Shown here piece by piece: positions 14,633 to 63,707 of a stretch of 64,000 nt of DNA. Source of the DNA: Xanthobacteraceae bacterium. Lineage in GTDB: Bacteria > Pseudomonadota > Alphaproteobacteria > Rhizobiales > Xanthobacteraceae. The first letter of the stretch is position 1. Each line of letters starts with the position of its first letter. Below the pieces are notes generated by a model. The model worked only from the letters and a program-made list of their open reading frames with translations. It had not been told where the DNA came from and searched no databases. Position numbers and translations under genes: made by a program. The DNA is taken from contig JBQCHY010000056.1 in NCBI GenBank assembly GCA_051954235.1, forward strand, positions 4,499 to 68,498. The letters are read 5' to 3'.

Positions 14633-16555
14633 ATGATCCGTTTTATGAGTCCAAAACTCACAACACGCAATTATTTGATCGCCCTTCATGACACGCTAGC
14701 GACCGCGCTCGCGGTGTTGATCAGTTTTTTTCTTCGCTTTGAAGGCAGCGCCCTCGAAACACGCCTCCCCGTCCTTTTGTGGATACTCATCCCCTTTCTG
14801 GTTCTGAGCATTATCGTCTGCTATTTCTCTGGTTTGACCACCACGAAATGGAGGTTCGTCTCTCTTCCAGACGTATTCAATATTATTCGCACCGCGACCA
14901 TCCTAACGGTGGCTTTATTGGTGCTGGACTATATTTTTGTCGCGCCGGATATGGGCGACCGCTTCTTTCTCGGCAAAACAACGATCATTCTCTACTGGTT
15001 TCTTGAAGTCTTTTTCCTGAGCGCGTCCCGCTTCGCCTATCGTTACTTTCGCTTCACTCGCACCCAAAATAAAGCACGTGTCGGCGACGCCGCGCCAGCC
15101 TTGTTGATCGGCTTGGCCGCTGACGCAGAGATCGTGCTGCGAGCCTCCGAAAGTGGCGCGATCAAGCAACTTCGGCCGATCGGCATTTTGTCGCCGTCAT
15201 CCGCGGATCGCGGGCAGGTGATCCGACGCACGCCTGTCCTTGGCGGAGTCGAAGACCTAACCGAGGTCGTCAATGACTTCACGAAGCGGGGGACGTCGAT
15301 CAAGCGAGTCATCTTGACTCCGTCAGCGTTTGAACCCGGCGTCCCGTCCGATTCAATTTTGCTTGCTGCTCGAAAGCTCGGCCTGATCGCAAGCCGCCTT
15401 CCCTCTCTTGAGGCCGGAGAAGCACCGCAACTAAAGCCGGTTGCCGTTGAGGACCTTCTTCTGCGTCCGAGCCACAAGATCGACTATAGCCGTCTCGAAG
15501 ATCTGGTTCGCAACAAGGCGATCATCGTTACTGGCGGCGGTGGCTCGATCGGATCGGAAATCTGCGATCGTGTCGTTACCTTTGGTGCTGCTCGCCTCTT
15601 GATTATCGAGAATTCGGAGCCGGCACTATATGCAGTTCAGGAAGCGTTGGTCGCCCGGCAGACGAATGCCACAATCGAAGGCCGCGTGGCGGATATTCGT
15701 GACCGCGCGCGAATCCACCGCCTGATGCAGGAGTTCAAGCCGAACATCGTGTTCCATGCCGCCGCCCTCAAACATGTTCCTATTCTGGAGCGAGATTGGA
15801 GTGAGGGCGTCAAAACCAATATTTTTGGGTCAATCATCGTTGCGGATGCCGCAGCAGCCTCAGGCGCCGATGCCATGGTGATGATTTCGACGGACAAGGC
15901 CGTCGAGCCAGTTTCCATGCTCGGCCTGACCAAACGCTTTGCTGAAATGTATTGTCAAGCGCTGGATCGCGAACTCGCGGCACGAACCAGCGGCAAATTG
16001 CCGATGCGCTTGATATCGGTCCGGTTCGGAAATGTGTTGGCGTCGAATGGTTCCGTCGTACCGAAATTCAAGGCTCAGATTGAGGCGGGCGGACCGGTCA
16101 CGGTCACTCATCCTGATATGGTTCGATACTTTATGACAATCCGGGAGGCCTGCGACCTGGTCATTACGGCCGCGACCCATGCCCTTTCGCCCACCCGCTC
16201 GGACGTCTCGGTTTACGTCCTCGATATGGGACAACCGGTCCGGATCGTTGAGCTCGCCGAACGCCTGATTCAACTTTCGGGTCTACAGATCGGGCATGAC
16301 ATCGATATCGTCTTTTCAGGAATTCGCCCTGGCGAACGGCTCAATGAAATCCTGTTTACGGATCAGGAACCGACCATAGACATTGGTATCTCCGGCGTAA
16401 TGGCCGCCAAGCCAAACGAATCATCGATGCTCGAACTGAGAAAATGGATCGCCGTTCTCGAAAAAGCCGTTGCAGACGACGAGCGAGGCGTCGTCAAAGC
16501 AACGTTGACCGAGGCGGTTCCAGAGTTCGGCCACCCGGCTTCGGAGCTCCATTAG
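14633..16555 (+). CDS. Membrane-anchored UDP-GlcNAc 4,6-dehydratase (WbpM/PglF/CapD family)
   Basis: Four N-terminal TMs are followed by an SDR domain with IIVTGGGGSIGSE (Rossmann) and the MISTDKAV motif. The 640-aa length is typical of the family. Confidence 0.9.
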   Translation: MIRFMSPKLTTRNYLIALHDTLATALAVLISFFLRFEGSALETRLPVLLWILIPFLVLSIIVCYFSGLTTTKWRFVSLPDVFNIIRTATILTVALLVLDYIFVAPDMGDRFFLGKTTIILYWFLEVFFLSASRFAYRYFRFTRTQNKARVGDAAPALLIGLAADAEIVLRASESGAIKQLRPIGILSPSSADRGQVIRRTPVLGGVEDLTEVVNDFTKRGTSIKRVILTPSAFEPGVPSDSILLAARKLGLIASRLPSLEAGEAPQLKPVAVEDLLLRPSHKIDYSRLEDLVRNKAIIVTGGGGSIGSEICDRVVTFGAARLLIIENSEPALYAVQEALVARQTNATIEGRVADIRDRARIHRLMQEFKPNIVFHAAALKHVPILERDWSEGVKTNIFGSIIVADAAAASGADAMVMISTDKAVEPVSMLGLTKRFAEMYCQALDRELAARTSGKLPMRLISVRFGNVLASNGSVVPKFKAQIEAGGPVTVTHPDMVRYFMTIREACDLVITAATHALSPTRSDVSVYVLDMGQPVRIVELAERLIQLSGLQIGHDIDIVFSGIRPGERLNEILFTDQEPTIDIGISGVMAAKPNESSMLELRKWIAVLEKAVADDERGVVKATLTEAVPEFGHPASELH

Positions 16556-53329: not shown

Positions 53330-54796
53330 ATGTCTCTCGTCCATGACACCAACCTCATAACCGGCCTGGTTCATTCGAATTCCCGCAGCCAGCCTGTTGC
53401 CCCGATCTCGCTCAACGTCATGTCGCCGCTGATTGCGATATTCGATCTCGTCTGGATCGTCGCACTGGGAATTACCGTAGGTCTTCTCTATGACCACCTG
53501 GCTCTTGGTGGGCACAGCACGGCGCAAAATCACCTCGGCGCGGGAATCGCCGTGGCCGCGCTCTACTTAGGGTTCGCTCATGCGGCCGAGCTTTATCGCG
53601 GACCGAACCTCCTCCAGGTCAAATGGCAAGTCGAACATGCCACGCTTGCCTGGCTGCTGGCGTTCGTGTGCCTTGCATCCATTGCGTTCTTACTGAAAAC
53701 GGGAGCGGCATTCTCGCGCGGCGAGATGCTGCTATTCTTTAGCAGCGGCATCATTGCCAGTGCGGCAATGCGATTGATCGTTGCGCGGGTTTGCCGCTTC
53801 GTTCTCGCGTCCGGCGCGTTGAAATCCACCCGGGTCGTGTTGGTCGGATTGGCGGACGAACTCGCCGCCAATGGCGCATTGTCCGCGCTGGAAAAATACG
53901 GTTATGCCGTAGTCAGCGTCTTCCCGTTACCCACAGACGAAAATCCGGCCTCCGCCCGCGACACGCTGAAAGCCTATTTGCGGCAGGTGACCCGTTACGT
54001 CAGGGACATGAATATCGACGAGATCATCGTCGCGATTCCCTGGCGTTCGACGGAACTCCTACGCGAGGTCGAAGACGAGTTACGCGTGCTGCCGATACAG
54101 GTCACGCTGGTGCCTGACACCATTGCAGGTCAGGTATTGGATCACCCGTTGGCTGAACTCGGTCCGACAAAGGCAGTGCAACTCCAGCGGCCACCCCTGA
54201 ATGCCTTCCAGCGCAATCTGAAGCAAGGCATCGACCGCATACTGGCCGCGACGTCCCTGTTCCTTTTGATACCCTTCCTGGCCGTGATCATCGCGGCGAT
54301 ACGGATGGAATCGCCGGGGCCGGCGCTCTTTCTCCAAACGAGGGTCGGCTTCAATGGACGGCCATTCAAAATTTTCAAGTTCAGAACGATGTCCACGCTT
54401 GATGACGGGCCGGTCATCGTTCAAGCTACCAAGAACGACAGCCGCATCACACACCTCGGCGCACTGTTGCGCAAGCTTAGCATCGACGAACTGCCGCAAC
54501 TGATCAACGTGCTACGCGGCGACATGTCGCTGGTCGGCCCGCGTCCGCACGCGCTTGCACACGACAACGAATACGATCGGCTGATCGCGACCTACGCCAT
54601 ACGGCACAAGATGAAACCCGGCATCACCGGTTGGGCCCAGATCAACGGATTCCGTGGCGAAACACCTGAAATCGGCATGATGATGCGCCGGGTGGAGAGC
54701 GACCTGTGGTACATCGAGTCATGGTCGCCATGGCTCGACATCCGCATCATGCTGCTCACCGTGGTCCGGGTCCTGCAATCGGAAAACGCCCGTTGA
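53330..54796 (+). CDS. Polyprenyl-phosphate hexose-1-phosphate transferase (WbaP/ExoY family, full-length polytopic form)
   Basis: The 488-aa protein has N-terminal TMs, a central Rossmann-like domain and a C-terminal PALFLQTRVGFNGRPFKIFKFRTM...GDMSLVGPRP. Confidence 0.9.
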   Translation: MSLVHDTNLITGLVHSNSRSQPVAPISLNVMSPLIAIFDLVWIVALGITVGLLYDHLALGGHSTAQNHLGAGIAVAALYLGFAHAAELYRGPNLLQVKWQVEHATLAWLLAFVCLASIAFLLKTGAAFSRGEMLLFFSSGIIASAAMRLIVARVCRFVLASGALKSTRVVLVGLADELAANGALSALEKYGYAVVSVFPLPTDENPASARDTLKAYLRQVTRYVRDMNIDEIIVAIPWRSTELLREVEDELRVLPIQVTLVPDTIAGQVLDHPLAELGPTKAVQLQRPPLNAFQRNLKQGIDRILAATSLFLLIPFLAVIIAAIRMESPGPALFLQTRVGFNGRPFKIFKFRTMSTLDDGPVIVQATKNDSRITHLGALLRKLSIDELPQLINVLRGDMSLVGPRPHALAHDNEYDRLIATYAIRHKMKPGITGWAQINGFRGETPEIGMMMRRVESDLWYIESWSPWLDIRIMLLTVVRVLQSENAR

Positions 54797-55224
54797 TCTA
54801 AACGGCCTACCTCTTGGCCCGGCATAAGCCCAGCTTTGCTCAAGCCGTCGTGATCAGGATCGCCGGCGCGATTGTCAAATTTCGGTATCGTTATTGAGAA
54901 CGCTCATATCGATGCGTCCGCGGTGCGTATGCTGCGTACTCTCCTCTCTTCCGAGAAGGAAGGCAGATGCCGCAGACAGACAATCCGAATTCCTTACGCT
55001 CGCATCGAGACACCGCCCCTGTTTCGCAAGATCACCATAAGGGACGTCTTGATTGGGCAGTCCTCGTCGTCCTGTTCGCATTGAGCTGCACCTTGGGATG
55101 GATTTCTCTCTTGTTGTGGGGCGCCATGCGCGCCTTTCAAATCGCCCTTCTCTGAACGCGAGGCTCGATGTCGCGCCGCCCAAGGAAATATCATCAGCGA
55201 CGTTTGATACCGATGTACCGCTTA

Positions 55225-55238
55225 TTGACGGATAGCAA
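55225..55238. promoter_or_regulatory. FNR/FixK-type box variant TTGACGGATAGCAA
   Basis: It matches the FNR consensus at 8/10 positions and fits the TTG(A/C)-N6-(T/G)CAA form. It lies 115 bp upstream of the rfbF-like start, with a CTAAAT -10-like hexamer at 55259-55264 at class-II spacing. Confidence 0.3.
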
Positions 55239-55352
55239 CTTCGCTTTGCCCCCTTGGTCTAAATTTTCAACCACACGTACGCACTTTCTCAATTCTCACC
55301 GCTCGTCGTCAGACAATGCGTCATTCACGCACACATTGCAAAGGTCGCTGAG

Positions 55353-56168
55353 ATGAAGACAGTTCTGTTCTGCGGCGGTCTCGGCACGCGTATCCGGGAC
55401 GTAGCTGAAAATATCCCGAAACCGATGGTTCCGGTCGGCGACAAGCCGATCCTCTGGCATCTGATGCACTATTACAGTCAGTTCGGGCACAAGGATTTCG
55501 TCCTTTGCCTCGGCTACAAAGCGAACGTAATCAAGGAATACTTTCTGAATTACAAACCGCAGGCTTACGCCGACTGCGTCGTCTCGGGCTTCGGCAACGA
55601 GGTCGAGATTCTCGGAAATCCGCAGCAGGACTGGCGCATTGCGATGATCGATACCGGCATCTGGCGCAATATCGGCCAGCGGCTATGGGCCGTGCGTGAT
55701 CACGTCGTGGGCGAGGAGATGTTTCTCGCCAACTACAGCGACGGTCTCTCTGACGTCAATCTCACCGAAATGATCGAAACCTTCCGCATCAGCGGAAAGG
55801 TCGCCTGCTTCACGGCGGTGCGGCCATCATTCAGTCTGCATCTGGTCGATATGCATCCGGATGGAAAAGTCGAACGGATCCGCGCCAGCCAGGAAGCCGA
55901 TCTTTGGATCAATGGCGGCTTCTTCATCTTCCGAAAGGAGATATTCGACTATATGCGCGACGGCGACGAACTCGTCGAAGCGCCATTCCAACGCTTGATC
56001 GAGGCGGATCAACTCATGGCGTTCCGGCATGAGGGATTCTGGCGTCCGATGGATACGTTGAAGGACAAGCAGATCCTCGAGGATCTCGTCGACAAGGGCA
56101 CGATGCCCTGGCTTCTCAATTTGAATCCCGGCATGGCCCCGGCCCGGACCGAGAGGAAAATGGGATGA
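55353..56168 (+). CDS. rfbF: Glucose-1-phosphate cytidylyltransferase
   Basis: It has MKTVLFCGGLGTRIRDVAENIPKPMVPVGDKPILWHLM...LCLGYK, and the 271-aa length is typical of RfbF/DdhA. Confidence 0.9.
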   Translation: MKTVLFCGGLGTRIRDVAENIPKPMVPVGDKPILWHLMHYYSQFGHKDFVLCLGYKANVIKEYFLNYKPQAYADCVVSGFGNEVEILGNPQQDWRIAMIDTGIWRNIGQRLWAVRDHVVGEEMFLANYSDGLSDVNLTEMIETFRISGKVACFTAVRPSFSLHLVDMHPDGKVERIRASQEADLWINGGFFIFRKEIFDYMRDGDELVEAPFQRLIEADQLMAFRHEGFWRPMDTLKDKQILEDLVDKGTMPWLLNLNPGMAPARTERKMG

Positions 56169-56818
56169 AGCGCTTCAAGCTCGCCGATGCAAATGAGCGA
56201 TTGTCCGTGCTTTGCATCGGCGCGCATTCCGACGACATCGAGATCGGCGCCGGCGCAACGATCCTCGGTTGGATCGATCGCGGTGTGCGCCTCGACGTCC
56301 ATTGGGTGGTTCTGAGTGCGCAAGGGCCGCGCGGCGACGAGGCGCGCTCGTCCGCCGAGGCATTTCTCGCTGGCTCGGAACGCGCGGTGATCGAGTTGGC
56401 GGAATTCAAGGACGGCTTTTTCCCGCATCAGGGGGCCGAGATCAAGATCTGGTTCGAGGCTCTGAAACGACGTGCATCGCCCGACGTGATCCTGTGCCAC
56501 ACGCGCCACGACGCGCATCAAGACCATCGCGAAGTCTGCGCATTGACGTGGAACACCTTTCGCGACCACGCGATCCTCGAATACGAAATTCCGAAATGGG
56601 ATGGCGACCTGAGCCAGCCGAATGTCTTCATTCCAGCTACCCGAACGCTGATGGAGCGCAAGGCCAAACTCCTGCGCCAGCATTTCGGCACGCAGCGCTC
56701 AAAGGACTGGTTTGACGCGGAAACATTCATGGGTCTGGCACGGCTGCGCGGCATGGAATGCCGCGCGCCGGACGGATTCGCCGAAGCCTTTCACGGACGG
56801 AAACTAACGGTGCAGTAA
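56165..56818 (+). CDS. PIG-L/LmbE-family deacetylase
   Basis: It has [16 protein letters not shown] and [13 protein letters not shown] metal-binding motifs, and a 4-nt overlap with rfbF. Confidence 0.85.
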
Positions 56819-56834
56819 AGCTAAGGAAACCGCC

Positions 56835-57908
56835 ATGCGTGTGATGGTCACAGGACACTTGGGTTATATTGGAACCGTGATGGTGCCGATGCTGCTGGCA
56901 TCTGGTCACGACGTGGTGGGCTTCGACAGCAATCTCTATGAGCGATGCACCTTCGAGGCCGGAGGCCGCATCCAGCCTGTGCCGCAGATCCGCAAGGATA
57001 TTCGCGACGTCACGCGCGAGGACCTCAGGGGGCTCGACGCCATCATTCATCTCTGCGCCTTGTCGAACGATCCGCTCGGGAATTTTCGTCCTCAACTGAC
57101 CTACGACATCAACCACGCGGGCAGCGTGCGGCTGGCGACGCTGGCGAAGGAAGCGGGCGTCAAACGCTTCCTGTTGGCCTCCTCCTGCAGCAACTACGGA
57201 CAGGCCGGCGAGGCCATGCTTGATGAGACCGGGGCGCTCAATCCGGTGACGGCCTATGGCGAATCCAAGGTCCGGTCCGAGCGCGATATCTCTACACTGG
57301 CCGGTGATGGCTTCTGCCCGACCTATATGCGCCCGGCCACCGCCTATGGCGTCTCGCCGCGAATCCGTTTCGATATCGTGCTCAACAATCTGGTCGCCTG
57401 GGCGGTGACCAACGGGCTGATCTATCTGAAGTCGGACGGATCGCCATGGCGGCCGATCGTCCACATCGAAGACATTTCGCGCGCCTTCATCGCGGCGCTC
57501 GAAGCGCCGGTGGATGTGGTCTTCAATCAGGCCTTCAACGTCGGCCAGACTGAGCACAACTATCGCATCAGCGATATCGCCAAGATCGTCGCCGATGTCG
57601 TGCCGGGCTGCCGGCTCGAATACGCCCCTGATGCAAGCCCCGATACGCGGTCCTACCGGGTCAATTTCGACAAGATCGCGCGCATGCTGCCGGCCTTCAA
57701 GCCACAATGGGATGCACGGCGCGGCGCCGAACAACTCTATAGCGCCTATCTCCGTACGAAGTTGACACTCGAGGAGTTCGAAGGTCCGCGCTACCAGCGC
57801 ATCGGTCACATCCAGAAGCTGATTGCCGACGGCATCCTTGGCGACGATCTGAAACACCGCTCGGCCGTTCATTCCGAATCCATCCGCCAGTTCGCTGTCG
57901 GTGGCTAG
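56835..57908 (+). CDS. Extended-SDR NAD-dependent epimerase/dehydratase (role in the pathway unresolved)
   Basis: It has [12 protein letters not shown] (Rossmann) and a SSCSNYG...YGESK catalytic triad region. It is not the typical RfbG (TGHTGFKG) signature. Confidence 0.8.
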
Positions 57909-57922
57909 ACCAGACACAAGCC

Positions 57923-58501
57923 ATGATCTTTACCGAAACAAAGCTCAAGGGTGCGTTCATCATCGATCTCGACCGCAAGACGGACGAGCGAGGTTTCTTC
58001 GCGCGCACCTTCTGCCAGCACGAATTCCGCGAGCATGGGCTTCGGTCCATGACCGCCCAAACCAATGTCGCCCTGAACACCAGGAAAGGCACGCTACGCG
58101 GCATGCACTTCCAGTATCCGCCGGCCGCCGAAACCAAGCTGGTGCGCTGCACGCGCGGCGCCCTGATCGATATTATCGTCGACCTGCGTCCCGAGAGCCC
58201 GACCTATCTCGATCACATCCGCGTCGAGCTCAACGAAGACAACATGAGAGCACTGTACGTGCCGGAACGCTTCGCCCACGGATTTCAGGCGCTCCGCGAC
58301 AATACCGTGACGAGCTACCAGATGGGCGAATTCTATAAGCCGGACGCGGAAAGCGGATTTCGCTACGACGATCCACTGCTGGGACTGGCATGGCCGCTGC
58401 CGGTGTCCGTGATGTCGCCGAAAGACCTGGCTTTGCGCTCGTTACGTGACATCGAAGACGACGTGAAATGCAGAATGTCGCGCGCATCGACGGCAGCATG
58501 A
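57923..58501 (+). CDS. RmlC-family NDP-4-keto-6-deoxyhexose 3,5-(or 3-/5-)epimerase (cupin)
   Basis: It has DERGFFARTF, LRGMHFQ, KLVRCTRGALIDIIVDLR, LYVPERFAHGFQAL and YDDPLLGLAWP. Confidence 0.85.
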   Translation: MIFTETKLKGAFIIDLDRKTDERGFFARTFCQHEFREHGLRSMTAQTNVALNTRKGTLRGMHFQYPPAAETKLVRCTRGALIDIIVDLRPESPTYLDHIRVELNEDNMRALYVPERFAHGFQALRDNTVTSYQMGEFYKPDAESGFRYDDPLLGLAWPLPVSVMSPKDLALRSLRDIEDDVKCRMSRASTAA

Positions 58502-58555
58502 CCAACATCATGGTCAGCCGGTGCCGGAAGATGCCGAACTGATCAGGGAGCAGCC

Positions 58556-59818
58556 ATGATTCTGAATTCGTTGCCGGTCCTCGCGGCTGCCTCCAAGTGC
58601 CGCCATTGCCGATCCGAACTGACGCTGACGCTGGTGGATCTCGGGCTGTCCCCGGTCGCCAATGACTATGTCGATCCGGAAAATGCCGGGAAAGCCGAAC
58701 CGTTCTATCCGCTGAAGGCCTTGGTCTGCCGCAATTGCCGTCTGGTCCAGACCTCCGACATGCTGGCGGCCGACGATATCTTCCGCGCCGACTACGCTTA
58801 CTTTTCCTCGCATTCGACGTCCTGGCTGACTCATGCCCGCACCTATGTCGAGGACATGATCACACGCTTCGGTCTCACCGAAGCATCACGCCATGTCGAA
58901 ATCGCCTCGAACGACGGCTACCTGCTGCAGTATTCGATGGCCAAAGGCATCCAGTGCCTGGGTATCGAACCCTGCAAAAGCGTCGCGCTCGCCGGCAAGG
59001 CGAAAGGCATCGACACCCGCATGCGGTTCTTCGGCGTGCAGTATGCGCACGAACTGGCCCGCGAGGGCTGGACTGCCGATCTGATCACGGCCAATAACGT
59101 GTTGGCACACGTGCCGGATATCAACGATTTCGTCGGCGGCGTAAAAATATTGCTCGCCCCGGAAGGCGTCGCGACCTTCGAGGTGCAGCATCTTCTCAAG
59201 CTGATGCAACTCCACCAATTCGACACTATCTATCACGAGCATTTTTCCTACCTGTCGCTGATCGCCGGACAGCGCATCTTCGCCAGCGCCGGCTTGCGCG
59301 TGTTCGATGTCGAATTGCCCAAGTCGCATGGTGGGTCCATCCGCTTTTTTGTCTGTCACGAACAGGCCAGTCACCCGCAAACCGCCCGGGTGGCGGAGCC
59401 GCTGGCGGCCGAGCGAGCCTATGGCCTTGATGGCGACGCCGCCTATGTCGCGTGGAATGAATCGGTGAAGGCGACCAAGCGCGATCTGCTTGATCTCCTG
59501 ATCGGCCTGAAGCGTAACGGCAAGAAGATCGTCGGCTACGGCGCGCCGGCCAAAGCCGCGACGCTCCTCAATTATTGCGGCATCGGGACTGACTTCATCG
59601 AGTTCACCGTGGATCGCGCGCCGTCAAAACAGGGACGCTATGTGCCCGGCGTACGGCTTCCCATCTTCCCTCCCGAAGCCATCCTCGAGGCGAAGCCCGA
59701 TTTCGTGCTGATCTTCCCATGGAATCTGAAGAACGAAATCAAAGCGCAGATGAGCGAAATCAAGTCATGGGGCGGCCGGTTCATTGTGCCGGTGCCGAAG
59801 GCAACCATTGAAGATTAG
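58556..59818 (+). CDS. NDP-hexose C-methyltransferase (Zn-ribbon plus class I SAM MTase plus C-methyltransferase C-terminal domain; TylC3/NovU-like)
   Basis: It has CRHCRSEL...LSPVANDY...LVCRNCRLVQ (a 4-Cys zinc site), HVEIASNDGYLL (SAM motif I-like) and ANNVLAHVPD. The 420-aa length is typical. Confidence 0.75.
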   Translation: MILNSLPVLAAASKCRHCRSELTLTLVDLGLSPVANDYVDPENAGKAEPFYPLKALVCRNCRLVQTSDMLAADDIFRADYAYFSSHSTSWLTHARTYVEDMITRFGLTEASRHVEIASNDGYLLQYSMAKGIQCLGIEPCKSVALAGKAKGIDTRMRFFGVQYAHELAREGWTADLITANNVLAHVPDINDFVGGVKILLAPEGVATFEVQHLLKLMQLHQFDTIYHEHFSYLSLIAGQRIFASAGLRVFDVELPKSHGGSIRFFVCHEQASHPQTARVAEPLAAERAYGLDGDAAYVAWNESVKATKRDLLDLLIGLKRNGKKIVGYGAPAKAATLLNYCGIGTDFIEFTVDRAPSKQGRYVPGVRLPIFPPEAILEAKPDFVLIFPWNLKNEIKAQMSEIKSWGGRFIVPVPKATIED

Positions 59819-59933
59819 CCATTGTAGATAGAAACTCAGCCATCTGGGTTGCGAGCAATGCATTGAAAGGGCAGTCTCTTTAGACCGGACGTTTTAAGGT
59901 CCGGAATGTTGAAGGCAGGTTTTGTCGATTTTA

Positions 59934-60662
59934 ATGTCGAGATTCTTGGAGAACACAACAGCGCTGGTTACGGGTGCGAGTTCCGGCATCGGGCGCGCGA
60001 CCGCGAAACTTCTCGCTCACTCCAAGGTAAAGGTCGCCTTGGTCGGGCGGCGCCAGTCCTTGCTTGAAGACCTCGCAGCGGAATGCGGCCCGCGCGTATC
60101 CGCTTATCCTTGCGATATGACGGATGACGCACAACTCAAAGAGCTTGCGGATCGGATACGCGTCGATCTTTCCAGGATCGATATCCTGGTCCATTCGTCG
60201 GGAATCATCAAACTGGGAACGACAGAGACATCGCCTGTCTCCGATTTCGACAGCCAGTATGCAGCCAACGTTCGGGCCCCCTACACCCTGACGCAGTTGC
60301 TGCTACCGCTTCTGCGCGAGGCATCCGGGCAAATTATTGTCGTGAATTCCTCGATCACCCGCGCGCACAATACGGCCGGCCGCGGCACCTACGCCGCGAC
60401 CCAACACGCCGTCCACGCAATGACGAACGCTCTGCGCGATGAAGTCAATGAGTTCGGCGTGAGAGTGACGAGCATTTTTCCCGGCACCACCGCAACCCAA
60501 CGACAGATGGATCTTCACGCGATATCCGGCAGACGATACGATCCCGATCGTATGTTACAGCCGGAAGACGTCGCCGAAGCGGTGTTGTTCGCACTCACCA
60601 TGGGCAGGACAGCAGAAGTTACCGATCTCTACCTACGTCCCATGCTCAAACCTCTACCCTGA
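59934..60662 (+). CDS. Classical short-chain dehydrogenase/reductase (candidate ketoreductase)
   Basis: It has ALVTGASSGIGRA (TGxxxGxG), NSSITR and YAATQHAV (YxxxK-like, with Q in place of K). The ATG at 59934 is preferred over the TTG at 59922. Confidence 0.8.
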   Translation: MSRFLENTTALVTGASSGIGRATAKLLAHSKVKVALVGRRQSLLEDLAAECGPRVSAYPCDMTDDAQLKELADRIRVDLSRIDILVHSSGIIKLGTTETSPVSDFDSQYAANVRAPYTLTQLLLPLLREASGQIIVVNSSITRAHNTAGRGTYAATQHAVHAMTNALRDEVNEFGVRVTSIFPGTTATQRQMDLHAISGRRYDPDRMLQPEDVAEAVLFALTMGRTAEVTDLYLRPMLKPLP

Positions 60663-60719
60663 AGGGCCGCCACCGGTCGCGATCGATCGATCGGAACGAT
60701 CCGAAAAGGAAGGCATCCA

Positions 60720-62036
60720 GTGTCGAACAGGAAGCACCATGCCGACGCGGGCGAGGTTCCTCCAATTGACCTGCATGGGTTGGTGCAGGAGCTTTTCCCG
60801 ATCAATCGAAGCCTCACCGGCGCCGGCGTTCGCGAGACACTAGCGATCCTGGCGCGATACGTCGCGCTGAACATCAGGGAGATTCCGAGCGGTACAGCGG
60901 TGCTCGATTGGCACGTTCCACTGGAATGGAACATTCGCGGCGCAACCATCAAGACACTGGACGGCCGACGCATGGTCGATTTCGCGGACAACAATCTGCA
61001 TGTCGTCGGCTACAGCAAGCCGTTTCATGGCGAGGTGAGCCACGCGGAACTAGCGCGGCATGTCCACACCCTGCCCGATCAGCCCGACCTCATTCCCTAT
61101 CGCACCGGCTACTATGCCGACGACTGGGGGTTCTGCATGGCCGACAATCTCTGGCAAACCATGCAAGACGAAAGCTATGTCGTTGATATCGACAGCGACC
61201 TTTCGCCGGGGGCGCTCGCCTATGGGGAGTTTTGTCACCCAGGCGAAACATCCGATGAGATACTGATCACGGCCCACATCTGCCATCCGAGTCTTGCGAA
61301 TGACAACCTTTCCGGAATCGCCGTAGCCCTTGCATTGGCTATGCGGCAAACGCAGCTCAAGACACGATTGGGTTTACGCGTTCTGTTTCTGCCTGCGACG
61401 ATCGGCGCGATCTCGTGGCTCGCCCGCAACGAGGATCATCTCGGCAAAATTCGCCATGGATTGGTTCTGACCTGCATCGGCGATAACGGAGGCTTCCACT
61501 ACAAACAAAGCCGAAGCGGCGCACCCATCGACCATGCCGTCGCGCACGTACTGCGCCATTCCGGCCATCCGCACGAGATCATGGCCTTCGATCCCTACGG
61601 CTACGACGAAAGACAATTCTGTTCGCCGGCGTTTGACTTGCCGGTGGGCTGCCTGATGCGCAGCGTTCACGGGACTTTCCCCGAATACCACACGTCGGCG
61701 GACAATCTCGATTTCGTGAAACCCGAAGCACTCGATCAATCCTATGCGGTAACGGCAAGCTTGCTCGACCTGCTGGACGCGAACCGCACCTACATCCGGA
61801 TCGATGGAAGGGGCGAACCCCAACTGGGGCGACGTGGTCTGTATCGCGCGATCGCCGGGCAGAAGGAAGCTGGCGGCGCTAGTCAGATGGACCTGTTGTG
61901 GGTCCTGAACCTGGCTGACGGCAAGCATAGCCTGCTGAAGATGGCGGATCGCGCCGGCGTCCCCTTTTTCCGCATCCAAAAGGCCGCGCGGCTCGCGCTG
62001 GATGCCGACCTTATCAAAGAGATCGCTGGCAATTGA
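60720..62036 (+). CDS. Aminopeptidase-like (M28-fold, DUF4910/COG4310-type) protein with a C-terminal winged-helix region
   Basis: It has ELFPINRSLTGAGVRETL and HICHPSLANDNLSGIAV motifs, which I associate with the polysaccharide-locus aminopeptidase-like family. It uses a GTG start. Confidence 0.7.
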   Translation: MSNRKHHADAGEVPPIDLHGLVQELFPINRSLTGAGVRETLAILARYVALNIREIPSGTAVLDWHVPLEWNIRGATIKTLDGRRMVDFADNNLHVVGYSKPFHGEVSHAELARHVHTLPDQPDLIPYRTGYYADDWGFCMADNLWQTMQDESYVVDIDSDLSPGALAYGEFCHPGETSDEILITAHICHPSLANDNLSGIAVALALAMRQTQLKTRLGLRVLFLPATIGAISWLARNEDHLGKIRHGLVLTCIGDNGGFHYKQSRSGAPIDHAVAHVLRHSGHPHEIMAFDPYGYDERQFCSPAFDLPVGCLMRSVHGTFPEYHTSADNLDFVKPEALDQSYAVTASLLDLLDANRTYIRIDGRGEPQLGRRGLYRAIAGQKEAGGASQMDLLWVLNLADGKHSLLKMADRAGVPFFRIQKAARLALDADLIKEIAGN

Positions 62037-62090
62037 CAAGCCTGCTCCGGACAAAACTCCTGCAGCTGGAAACCAACGTCAACATTGGCC

Positions 62091-63380
62091 CTATCGCCTG
62101 CCTCTCGTGATATGCGTGCTCGCACTGCGAACGGGCTGAAACACAGCCGCATGCGGCACCGCTTTGGGAACGTTGTCGCGCGCGGTCTGCACGCCTCTTT
62201 GGAGCGTGTAGGCTAGAAACAGAAACACCGCTGCCTCGCTGGCGAGAACGCCAAACGCGGCCACATTCGGGCGCATGGTGGCATACGCGGCAGCGACGAC
62301 CAGCAGATTTCCGAACGCGGCAATTGAAGCCAGTTTCAGCGCAAACCCATCGTGATGGCGATGGTGCAGATAGGCATTTCCCAATGCAAAATTAGTCGCC
62401 AACAGCGGAAAGCCGAGCAGCATCCATCGCAGCGGCTCCGCCGCGCCGACATAGTTGGCCGAGAATACCAGCGTCAGAAAGAAGGGCGCGGTGATCGCGA
62501 AGAAGAGCGAGACAACCGACGAAGCGGCAAAACAGATGGCTCCCAACACGTACCAGCGCACGTGTTGGAAATGGCCGGCCGTTGCCAACCGGACCAGTTC
62601 TTGAGACAGAAACGCAAACGATCCAACGCCAGCATAGAACAACTTGTCGGCTTGCAGATAGAGGCCGACATGCGCCTGCGTGAACAGCACAACGACAAAA
62701 AGTCCGTTGGACCAATGCGAACCCAGCATGATCAATCTGATACTCAATGAGTCGAGCGACTCGCGAAAAATATCCCTATCGAGGTGAAATAGGGTTTTCA
62801 ACGACACGTAACGGAACAGGCGCTCGCTGACGAGAAGGACCGACCCCAGCCGTGATGCAACGAGAATACTCAGAATCACTACGAGCGTCGGCTGATACTT
62901 GAGAAAAATGATCGCAATGTAGATCGCAACCGCAAGCGACGAAAAGATTATCTCCGATATCGAGTACAGACGAAAGATGCTGGTGTTGGCCGCGACCAAC
63001 CACGGAGATCGCAATGAAAAGCCGACGATCAGAAGTATCCCGAGGATTGCCGGCAACGGCTGCCCGGAGGTCGGCATATACACGTATGCAACCGGAAGAC
63101 AAAGCAGCATGATCAGAAAGCGTTGAGCATTGACTTTGTAGTAATAGGCCGCCTGATCCGCAGCTTTCGGTCTTTGAGCCAGATTGCGATAAGCCGGTCG
63201 CGAGTACCCGAGATCCGCCACCTGCGAAGCGAACATGCACACGGCGTGAATGCTGAGCAGAAGCACATTCTGACTATGATTGAGCGTTAGAGCCGCGGCC
63301 TTGAAGGCGACGAACAGCGACGCTGTGTTGGCGACGTAGAGCGCAAGCATTAAGAACAACCGGCTTGAAATGCTTGGCAT
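62091..63380 (-). CDS. Polytopic membrane protein, Wzx/MOP-flippase-like
   Basis: It has about 12 TMs, is convergent with the CDP-sugar operon, and starts at MPSISS with a GAAGGAAG RBS. The family assignment rests on topology and context only. Confidence 0.6.
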   Translation of the reverse strand: MPSISSRLFLMLALYVANTASLFVAFKAAALTLNHSQNVLLLSIHAVCMFASQVADLGYSRPAYRNLAQRPKAADQAAYYYKVNAQRFLIMLLCLPVAYVYMPTSGQPLPAILGILLIVGFSLRSPWLVAANTSIFRLYSISEIIFSSLAVAIYIAIIFLKYQPTLVVILSILVASRLGSVLLVSERLFRYVSLKTLFHLDRDIFRESLDSLSIRLIMLGSHWSNGLFVVVLFTQAHVGLYLQADKLFYAGVGSFAFLSQELVRLATAGHFQHVRWYVLGAICFAASSVVSLFFAITAPFFLTLVFSANYVGAAEPLRWMLLGFPLLATNFALGNAYLHHRHHDGFALKLASIAAFGNLLVVAAAYATMRPNVAAFGVLASEAAVFLFLAYTLQRGVQTARDNVPKAVPHAAVFQPVRSASTHITRGRR

Positions 63381-63707
63381 CTTCAAACTTCCTTCGCCGA
63401 TATCTGCCGTCAAGTTAGCGCGCGGCGCGCCTAACATGCAGCCTTACCGTTTTGCATAGGGACGCCTGCCAGGCCCGTCATCGAACGCCGGTTTTGCGCC
63501 TCGGTGGCGAAAGCAAATGACATCGCGTGGAACATCTGCTGATTGGGGCGATTGTGGACGATTTCGCCCATGCTGATCTCATGAGCGAGCTAACGCTTGG
63601 ATTGAATGCCGGAACGGCGTCTGCCACGGTTCAGGGCTCGAAAATCTCGAGCCCGTTCGACCTCTAACCTGCTCGCCGTCCCGGCTACGCCAAACTTGCG
63701 GCCAGTT

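Follow-up and report, generated by a model that had tools for sequence, protein, structure and literature searches.

SDR357 is probably a C4-dehydrogenase rather than a 4,6-dehydratase

The DNA analyzed here (the window) is a stretch of 64,000 nucleotides from a Xanthobacteraceae bacterium (assembly GCA_051954235.1, contig JBQCHY010000056.1, positions 4,499 to 68,498 of the forward strand). Our analysis supports the view that a seven-gene operon at positions 55353-62036 of the window, in this soil bacterium, is a cytidine diphosphate (CDP)-type nucleotide-sugar operon. Among its products is a 357-residue extended short-chain dehydrogenase/reductase (SDR), here called SDR357 (56835..57908, + strand), which is probably a CDP-hexose C4-dehydrogenase resembling Cj1427 of Campylobacter jejuni rather than a hidden 4,6-dehydratase. 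With functional assignments that rest on sequence, fold and gene context, we think it rather likely that the sugar formed by the operon is a CDP-activated hexose, possibly a hexosamine, with a methyl branch at C3 and its 6-OH retained, destined for the surrounding polysaccharide locus.

An earlier reading of this DNA, referred to below as the first-pass annotation, had described a CDP-type operon whose RmlC-type epimerase and Zn-ribbon C-methyltransferase require a 4-keto substrate, and had noted that a canonical CDP-glucose 4,6-dehydratase is missing from it. All the genes that it named were found on the + strand where it had placed them, and both statements are supported. On the RfbG model TIGR02622, for which the cut-off is 278.45 bits, SDR357 scored 24.1 bits, over residues 2-118 only, and the best match genome-wide scored 58.9 bits. 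Family profile searches of the whole genome, which is 99.6% complete, gave no match above cut-off to RfbG, RmlB or GMD; the separate rfbG that the first-pass annotation had allowed for elsewhere in the genome was thus not found. Moreover, in a scan of all the open reading frames (ORFs) of the genome, the T-[DS]-[EK] motif was present in none of five extended SDRs. RfbG, RmlB and GMD are thus all missing from a genome whose operon codes for two 4-keto-dependent enzymes, which supports SDR357 as the source of the keto group.

Both sequence and fold place SDR357 closest to Cj1427. Its best sequence match in the PDB, as assessed with phmmer, was 6vo6/6vo8 (E=3e-29, the next match having 1.5e-17); 6vo6 was identified as Cj1427 via the Foldseek entry titles. 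An alignment of 38 sequences was built, and a confident AlphaFold model of SDR357 was obtained (predicted local distance difference test, pLDDT, 90.9; predicted template modeling score, pTM, 0.90). When it was compared with known structures using Foldseek, ranks 1-6 were all chains of Cj1427, with TM scores of 0.86-0.89 on the target, followed by 4-epimerases, MoeE5 and TunA, and no 4,6-dehydratase was found among the top 50. Cj1427 oxidizes C4 of GDP-D-glycero-D-manno-heptose and leaves C6 and the 6-OH untouched; it holds NADH tightly, recycling it by means of 2-oxoglutarate, which is converted to L-2-hydroxyglutarate, and its product feeds the RmlC-like enzyme Cj1430 (PMC10680097).

SDR357 has the motif TGHLGYIG at residue 6 and Y141xxxK145, and the triad formed by S117, Y141 and K145 is present. 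At the position of the T-D-E or T-D-K of dehydratases it has S117-C118-S119, of which C118 and S119 align with the Asn and Ser of a T-N-S in Cj1427; the canonical RfbG of a close relative has TTDKVY, i.e., T-D-K. Across the family the motif is S-C-x, and the third position, the Glu site of dehydratases, is variable (S, I, V, A or L). An unusual segment, G-x-S-P-R-x-R-x-D-x-x-x-N, is common to SDR357 and Cj1427. A characterized CDP-glucose 4,6-dehydratase, HS41.20, was considered as a possible member of the SDR357 family and rejected, as it is a canonical RfbG with T-D-K.

In the model put forward by the first-pass annotation, SDR357 would be a non-canonical CDP-hexose 4,6-dehydratase (using, for example, Cys118 or Asp79), and the product a vinelose-like CDP-6-deoxy-3-C-methyl-hexose. 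SDR357 does occupy the genomic position of RfbG beside RfbF-type genes, certain polar residues close to the usual catalytic segments are invariant in, and specific to, its family, and most of the characterized C3-methyltransferases and RmlC enzymes use 6-deoxy-4-keto sugars. We nevertheless regard this model as unlikely. No carboxylate or Lys is found at the T-D-E/K position, where even the Glu site varies, and in sequence and fold the enzyme neighbors Cj1427 and 4-epimerases instead of dehydratases. Because the reaction of a 4,6-dehydratase is redox-neutral within the sugar molecule, it would offer no reason for the recurrence of an L-2-hydroxyglutarate oxidase beside members of the family (see below); also, the canonical RfbG that adjoins a member of the family in one locus would be redundant. 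A dehydratase role for SDR357 is therefore unsupported, the acid/base pair being absent, the closest relative being an enzyme that oxidizes C4 without dehydration, and an L-2-hydroxyglutarate oxidase accompanying the family in relatives. What stands of the earlier interpretation is a CDP-type branched-sugar pathway without a canonical dehydratase; in place of its 6-deoxy, vinelose-like product, and with SDR357 being Cj1427-like, we predict a CDP-3-C-methyl-hexose with its 6-OH.

The SDR357 family appears to take the place of RfbG in other genomes

In a search of 121 genomes (that of the window and 120 close relatives), a member of the SDR357 family was found in 16. The members of the relatives that are 38-49% identical to SDR357 adjoin a bona fide RfbF (309-455 bits), usually together with RmlC, and a C-methyltransferase and a second extended SDR are often present at the same loci. 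Canonical RfbG was found in one of the 16 carrier genomes, at a different locus and beside a second RfbF. A wider scan of species genomes by family motif gave at least 600 matches, and the best 80 loci, at 57-86% identity, were analyzed, with gene neighbors assigned by tblastn anchoring and clustering. These 80 loci span about ten phyla, and come from Alphaproteobacteria, Cyanobacteria, Chloroflexota, Acidobacteriota, Bacteroidota, Planctomycetota, Myxococcota, Fibrobacterota and two archaeal metagenome-assembled genomes. An RfbF-type cytidylyltransferase was found within the flanks of 72 of the 80, a C-methyltransferase in about 60, RmlC in 33, a PIG-L gene in 31 (next to a homologue of NTP*, the window cytidylyltransferase described below) and DUF4910 in 18. 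Canonical RfbG, on the other hand, was present in only one of 96 SDR357-family loci (L106), and the family thus seems to take the place of RfbG in these loci. In L106, the CDP-glucose 4,6-dehydratase (L106:8609-9745, 433.7 bits) is directly upstream of the SDR357 member and of an L-2-hydroxyglutarate oxidase.

Some members of the family are fused to other enzymes. In Psychromarinibacter halotolerans, SDR357 and a complete Zn-ribbon C-methyltransferase form a single ORF of 788 residues (L051:9956-12322), and putative ORFs spanning SDR357 and C-methyltransferase were seen in four more loci (L052, L061, L062 and L076), three of them from other Rhodobacteraceae. In another genome, an SDR357-family domain is joined to a DegT/DnrJ/EryC1 aminotransferase in an ORF of 733 residues (L032:9566-11764), beside a bona fide RfbF. 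Both fusion partners are users of keto-sugars, which argues that the SDR makes a keto-sugar.

The fusions bear on the possibility that SDR357 is a mere 4-epimerase or 4-ketoreductase, the 4-keto substrate coming from outside the operon. The sole candidate 4,6-dehydratase of the genome is a 649-residue WbpM/PglF-like, Polysacc_synt_2-like SDR coded from about position 15509 of the window onward, i.e., in the same large locus; it could act as a UDP-GlcNAc 4,6-dehydratase, with PIG-L deacetylating the sugar. That PIG-L implies an N-acetyl sugar, and that the best NCBIfam match of SDR357 is GalE (88.7 bits), would be in line with such a division of labor. Yet the cassette carries its own nucleotidyltransferase across phyla, no WbpM-like gene is among its recurrent neighbors, the fusions argue that the SDR itself makes the keto-sugar, and where a locus has just one SDR, nothing else in it could supply a keto group. 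We consider an external source of the keto-sugar very unlikely.

Several loci have additional genes. In Brucella haematophila, genes for a class III aminotransferase and for an apiosidase-like glycoside hydrolase (PF13204) are immediately upstream of SDR357 (L070:7168-9878), and a similar arrangement was found in loci of Phyllobacterium, Shinella, Rhizobium, Agrobacterium and Sulfitobacter; apiose is a 3-C-branched sugar. In many RfbF-linked loci (e.g., L114:12339-13532 and L079:12387-13625), the C-methyltransferase is followed by a second or third methyltransferase paralogue with a Methyltransf_14 C-terminal domain and no Zn ribbon, which hints at multiply methylated sugars.

L-2-hydroxyglutarate oxidase genes point to net hydride export in some relatives

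Four of the loci (L072:6351-7544, L075:5264-6454, L086:14803-16017 and L106:11097-12443) code for a bona fide L-2-hydroxyglutarate oxidase, with NF008726 scores of 533-588 bits against a cut-off of 299, in each case on the same strand as, and after, the SDR357 and methyltransferase genes. Related FAD enzymes with scores below the threshold (211-222 bits) are present in four others (L073, L097, L099 and L103). By a rough estimate, fewer than one such oxidase neighbor per 80 loci would be expected by chance. As L-2-hydroxyglutarate is the by-product of a Cj1427-type dehydrogenase, which re-oxidizes its NADH with 2-oxoglutarate in ping-pong fashion, this activity would account for the oxidase neighbors, which a dehydratase would not. 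The oxidase genes point to net export of hydride by the SDR357 family, at least in those relatives. No L-2-hydroxyglutarate oxidase was found in the window.

A mechanistic variant of the C4-dehydrogenase reading has the same 6-OH product but requires neither an external oxidant nor a separate reductase. SDR357 would oxidize C4, pass the keto-sugar to the epimerase and the methyltransferase, and then re-reduce it with the same hydride. Many loci consisting of genes for RfbF, SDR357, the C-methyltransferase, a second methyltransferase and a glycosyltransferase have no further oxidoreductase, indicating that one redox enzyme suffices; the same is true of fusions of SDR357 to the C-methyltransferase. 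In addition, the next-best fold neighbors, the 4-epimerases, work by transient oxidation, and the genome of the window has no clear L-2-hydroxyglutarate oxidase. Against such a cycle, the oxidase in the operon of four relatives suggests that hydride is exported there, and the window operon, as well as several others, has an extra SDR or DRL-type oxidoreductase. Transient oxidation, too, seems to us improbable.

An N-acetylhexosamine as the possible entry sugar

The cytidylyltransferase of the operon, NTP* (55353..56168, + strand), is RfbF-like, and the first-pass annotation had it commit glucose-1-phosphate to the CDP series. NTP* matches Salmonella typhi RfbF (1tzf) over its full length (E=1.8e-55, residues 2-253 against 4-255), but its score on the RfbF model TIGR02623, 231.1 bits, is under the cut-off of 300.25. 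In a maximum-likelihood tree, the cytidylyltransferases coded beside SDR357 fell into two clades with 100/100 support. The clade with S. typhi RfbF has 49 rows, none of which has PIG-L, whereas PIG-L is adjacent in 32 of the 33 rows of the clade with NTP*. By this phylogeny NTP* belongs to a separate clade and is not an RfbF orthologue, which makes the use of glucose-1-phosphate uncertain.

In the window, the gene for the PIG-L/LmbE-family de-N-acetylase (56165..56818, + strand; PF02585, E=2e-13) sits between those for NTP* and SDR357, and its start overlaps NTP* by 4 nucleotides. The metal-binding and catalytic motifs of the protein, AHSDD (residue 20) and HQDH (residue 118), are intact. The co-inheritance of NTP* and PIG-L suggests that the substrate is an N-acetylated hexose-1-phosphate, the acetyl group being later removed by PIG-L, and the entry sugar may thus be an N-acetylhexosamine. 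We know of no description of CDP activation of an N-acetylhexosamine.

Tailoring enzymes and surroundings of the operon

The genes for both 4-keto-dependent enzymes are downstream of SDR357. The RmlC-type nucleoside diphosphate (NDP)-4-keto-sugar 3,5-epimerase (57923..58501, + strand; PF00908, E=8e-59) scores above the cut-off of TIGR01221 (159.5 against 155.75 bits). The TylC3/TcaB9/MtmC-type sugar C3-methyltransferase (58556..59818, + strand; Methyltransf_13, Methyltransf_23 and Methyltransf_14) has an N-terminal Zn ribbon; its best PDB match was MtmC (4rv9, E=4.9e-79), followed by KijD1 (5t64) and TcaB9 (3ndi), and Cys15, Cys18, Cys58 and Cys61 as well as the YHEH motif at residue 226 are present.

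The next gene codes for a classical SDR, a candidate accessory 4-ketoreductase (59922/59934..60662, + strand; PF00106, E=1.3e-42), for which the more probable start codon is the ATG at 59934, in agreement with the 242-residue gene call of Bradyrhizobium ivorense. The first-pass annotation had pointed to a YAATQ motif in this protein, and the motif is real. Instead of Tyr-x-x-x-Lys the protein has Tyr157-A-A-T-Gln161, the Gln codon being CAA at 60402-60404, and it retains TGxxxGIG and the Ser of NSS. Gln161 is common to the two closest orthologues (L006 and L024), whereas cassette orthologues at a greater distance (L042, L044, L063 and L116) retain the Lys; one further orthologue has FSATQ and looks broken (L059). 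The ratio of non-synonymous to synonymous substitution rates (dN/dS) is 0.09-0.12, against 0.05-0.14 for the neighboring genes. The YxxxQ SDR is under purifying selection, and the idea that its gene is a decaying pseudogene was rejected on this basis. Of 96 related loci, however, only about 9 have it, and it is therefore accessory and not the general final reductase, a role for which the first-pass annotation had made it a candidate.

The last gene of the operon codes for a DUF4910/DUF2172/HTH_47 metallopeptidase-like protein (60720..62036, + strand; PF16254, E=4.5e-104; PF09940 and PF16221). DUF4910 corresponds to the CA_C2195 family (PDB 3k9t), which has a metallopeptidase fold without a peptidase site and was predicted to modify sugars rather than to cut peptides (PMC4000134). 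It is kept in 18 to about 21 related loci, always with RmlC. Loci with RmlC but without the C-methyltransferase have a DRL/GFO-type oxidoreductase instead. A DRL_cat/GFO_IDH_MocA/SAF oxidoreductase is found after RmlC in L039, L040, L073, L083, L097, L103, L105, L106, L110 and L111, and also at L006:15475-16314, these variants of the cassette being mostly devoid of both the C-methyltransferase and DUF4910; the enzyme is probably their C4 reductase.

All the genes of 55353-62036 are on the + strand and tightly spaced, with gaps of -4 to about 100 nucleotides. B. ivorense has the seven genes in identical order, at 74-86% identity. Upstream of the operon are genes for a WcaJ-type priming transferase and a FixK-like regulator. 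Converging on it, on the - strand (62091-63437), is the gene for a protein of 448 residues with no match in Pfam or NCBIfam, whose hydrophobicity points to several passes through the membrane and which may be a flippase or polymerase; in L024, from a genome of the same genus, it is likewise found next to the cassette, with 80% identity. A scan of 54700-63600 for promoters and terminators gave numbers of sites no higher than in shuffled sequences.

A proposed route to a branched CDP-sugar with a 6-OH

In the route that we propose, NTP* would convert CTP and a hexose-1-phosphate into a CDP-hexose; its pairing with PIG-L suggests N-acetylhexosamine-1-phosphate, which would be de-N-acetylated later. 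SDR357, with tightly bound NAD+, would then oxidize C4 and form a CDP-4-keto-hexose with its 6-OH, as Cj1427 does on GDP-heptose, and the NADH would be re-oxidized by passing its hydride to 2-oxoglutarate, with formation of L-2-hydroxyglutarate, or to the tailored keto-sugar. Epimerization at C3 and/or C5 would be the task of the RmlC-like enzyme, and the C-methyltransferase would methylate C3 via an enolate. C4 could finally be reduced by the YxxxQ SDR, by SDR357 itself in a redox-neutral cycle, or by the MtmC-like methyltransferase; MtmC is a bifunctional methyltransferase/ketoreductase.

Several observations weigh against this route. SDR357 and Cj1427 are only about 27% identical, and Cys118, Ser77-Asn78-Asp79 and Lys199, which are invariant in the SDR357 family, are absent from Cj1427; these residues could serve as an unconventional acid/base for dehydration or epimerization. 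The L-2-hydroxyglutarate oxidase is not clearly represented in the genome of the window, its best match there being 27% identical and on another contig. The sole dedicated candidate for the final reductase has no catalytic Lys. The RfbG gene just upstream of the SDR gene in L106 may mean that the family sometimes acts on a 6-deoxy substrate. Lastly, the substrate sugar and the stereochemistry are beyond what sequence can tell.

A fuller reading, possible though rather doubtful when all of its parts are taken together, would make the operon the PIG-L-linked branch of a widespread branched-sugar route, in which a Cj1427-type nicotinoprotein C4-dehydrogenase stands in place of a 4,6-dehydratase. 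NTP* and PIG-L would provide a CDP-activated N-acetylhexosamine that is then deacetylated, and the product would be a CDP-2-amino-3-C-methyl-hexose with its 6-OH. The DUF4910 protein would be a newly recognized enzyme of sugar tailoring, and the YxxxQ SDR a Lys-less ketoreductase.

To our knowledge, nearly all the bacterial branched and L-configured NDP-hexoses known arise via a 4,6-dehydratase, and hence are 6-deoxy sugars. A C4-dehydrogenase route to CDP-sugars would be experimentally new. If true, a family of CDP-hexose C4-dehydrogenases, in hundreds of species of about ten phyla, would open a second route alongside, to sugars with an intact C6-OH, of which residues of the 3-C-methyl-mannose type are an example. 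It would also explain loci with RfbF, RmlC and a C-methyltransferase that seem to be without a dehydratase, correct the routine annotation of such SDRs as "UDP-glucose 4-epimerase", and give glyco-engineers a new enzyme with which to make NDP-4-keto-hexoses. The PIG-L-linked clade of transferases, DUF4910 and the Lys-less SDR are defined targets for testing.

Comparison with known systems

CDP-vinelose of Azotobacter, a Gram-negative bacterium, is a 6-deoxy, 3-C-methyl-branched sugar for which formation via a 4,6-dehydratase is established or proposed. A literature search found no paper on the vinelose genes and none on a C-methyltransferase together with a glucose-1-phosphate cytidylyltransferase, and on 3-C-methyl sugars in the O-antigen of Bradyrhizobium only a general review of nuclear magnetic resonance data. 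A route to GDP-virenose was proposed in Coxiella burnetii (PMC3539893, PMC3204966). GDP-virenose is likewise a nucleotide-linked, 3-C-methyl-branched sugar of a Gram-negative surface; unlike the product predicted here, it is a 6-deoxy sugar, and its formation is proposed to occur via GMD.

The window methyltransferase has the three-domain architecture, the Zn-binding Cys4 and the YHEH of the TylC3, TcaB9, KijD1 and MtmC enzymes of actinomycete antibiotics. The latter, however, act in secondary metabolism, on dTDP-4-keto-2,6-dideoxy or 6-deoxy substrates, whereas the predicted substrate of the window enzyme is a CDP-4-keto-hexose for a surface polysaccharide, and some of its relatives are fused to the SDR. 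The DUF4910 protein has the three-domain architecture of CA_C2195, and the published neighborhood of the latter, in which genes for an epimerase/dehydratase, for a nucleotidyltransferase and for a sugar methylase occur, agrees with the window cassette (PDB 3k9t; PMC4000134). In that study, unlike here, the SDR was not recognized as Cj1427-like, and the pairing of PIG-L with NTP* was not mentioned.

The canonical RfbF and RfbG system of C. jejuni HS:41 (HS41.21/20/19/18; PMC12369002) resembles the window operon in its RfbF-type CDP activation, in an RmlC-like 3,5-epimerase that acts on a CDP-4-keto sugar, and in the reduction of C4. It differs in having a T-D-K 4,6-dehydratase, which leads to 6-deoxy sugars; the window operon has no RfbG, and its transferase belongs to the other clade.

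The system formed by Cj1427, Cj1430 and Cj1428 of C. jejuni HS:2 (6vo6, 6vo8), which leads to GDP-D-glycero-L-gluco-heptose, differs in its substrate, a GDP-heptose rather than the predicted CDP-hexose, and in the modest identity noted above; C-methyltransferase, PIG-L and DUF4910 are all absent from it, and reduction is the task of a dedicated extended SDR, Cj1428. At the position of the invariant Cys118 of the SDR357 family, Cj1427 has Asn, and it has no SNDP motif. Cj1427 and SDR357 are alike in belonging to the extended SDRs, in having the Ser/Thr-Tyr-Lys triad and no dehydratase pair, in the SPRxRxD..N motif, and in being followed by an RmlC-like C3/C5 epimerase. Cj1427 is the top match of SDR357 in both sequence and fold, and its by-product, L-2-hydroxyglutarate, fits the oxidase found in loci related to the window operon.

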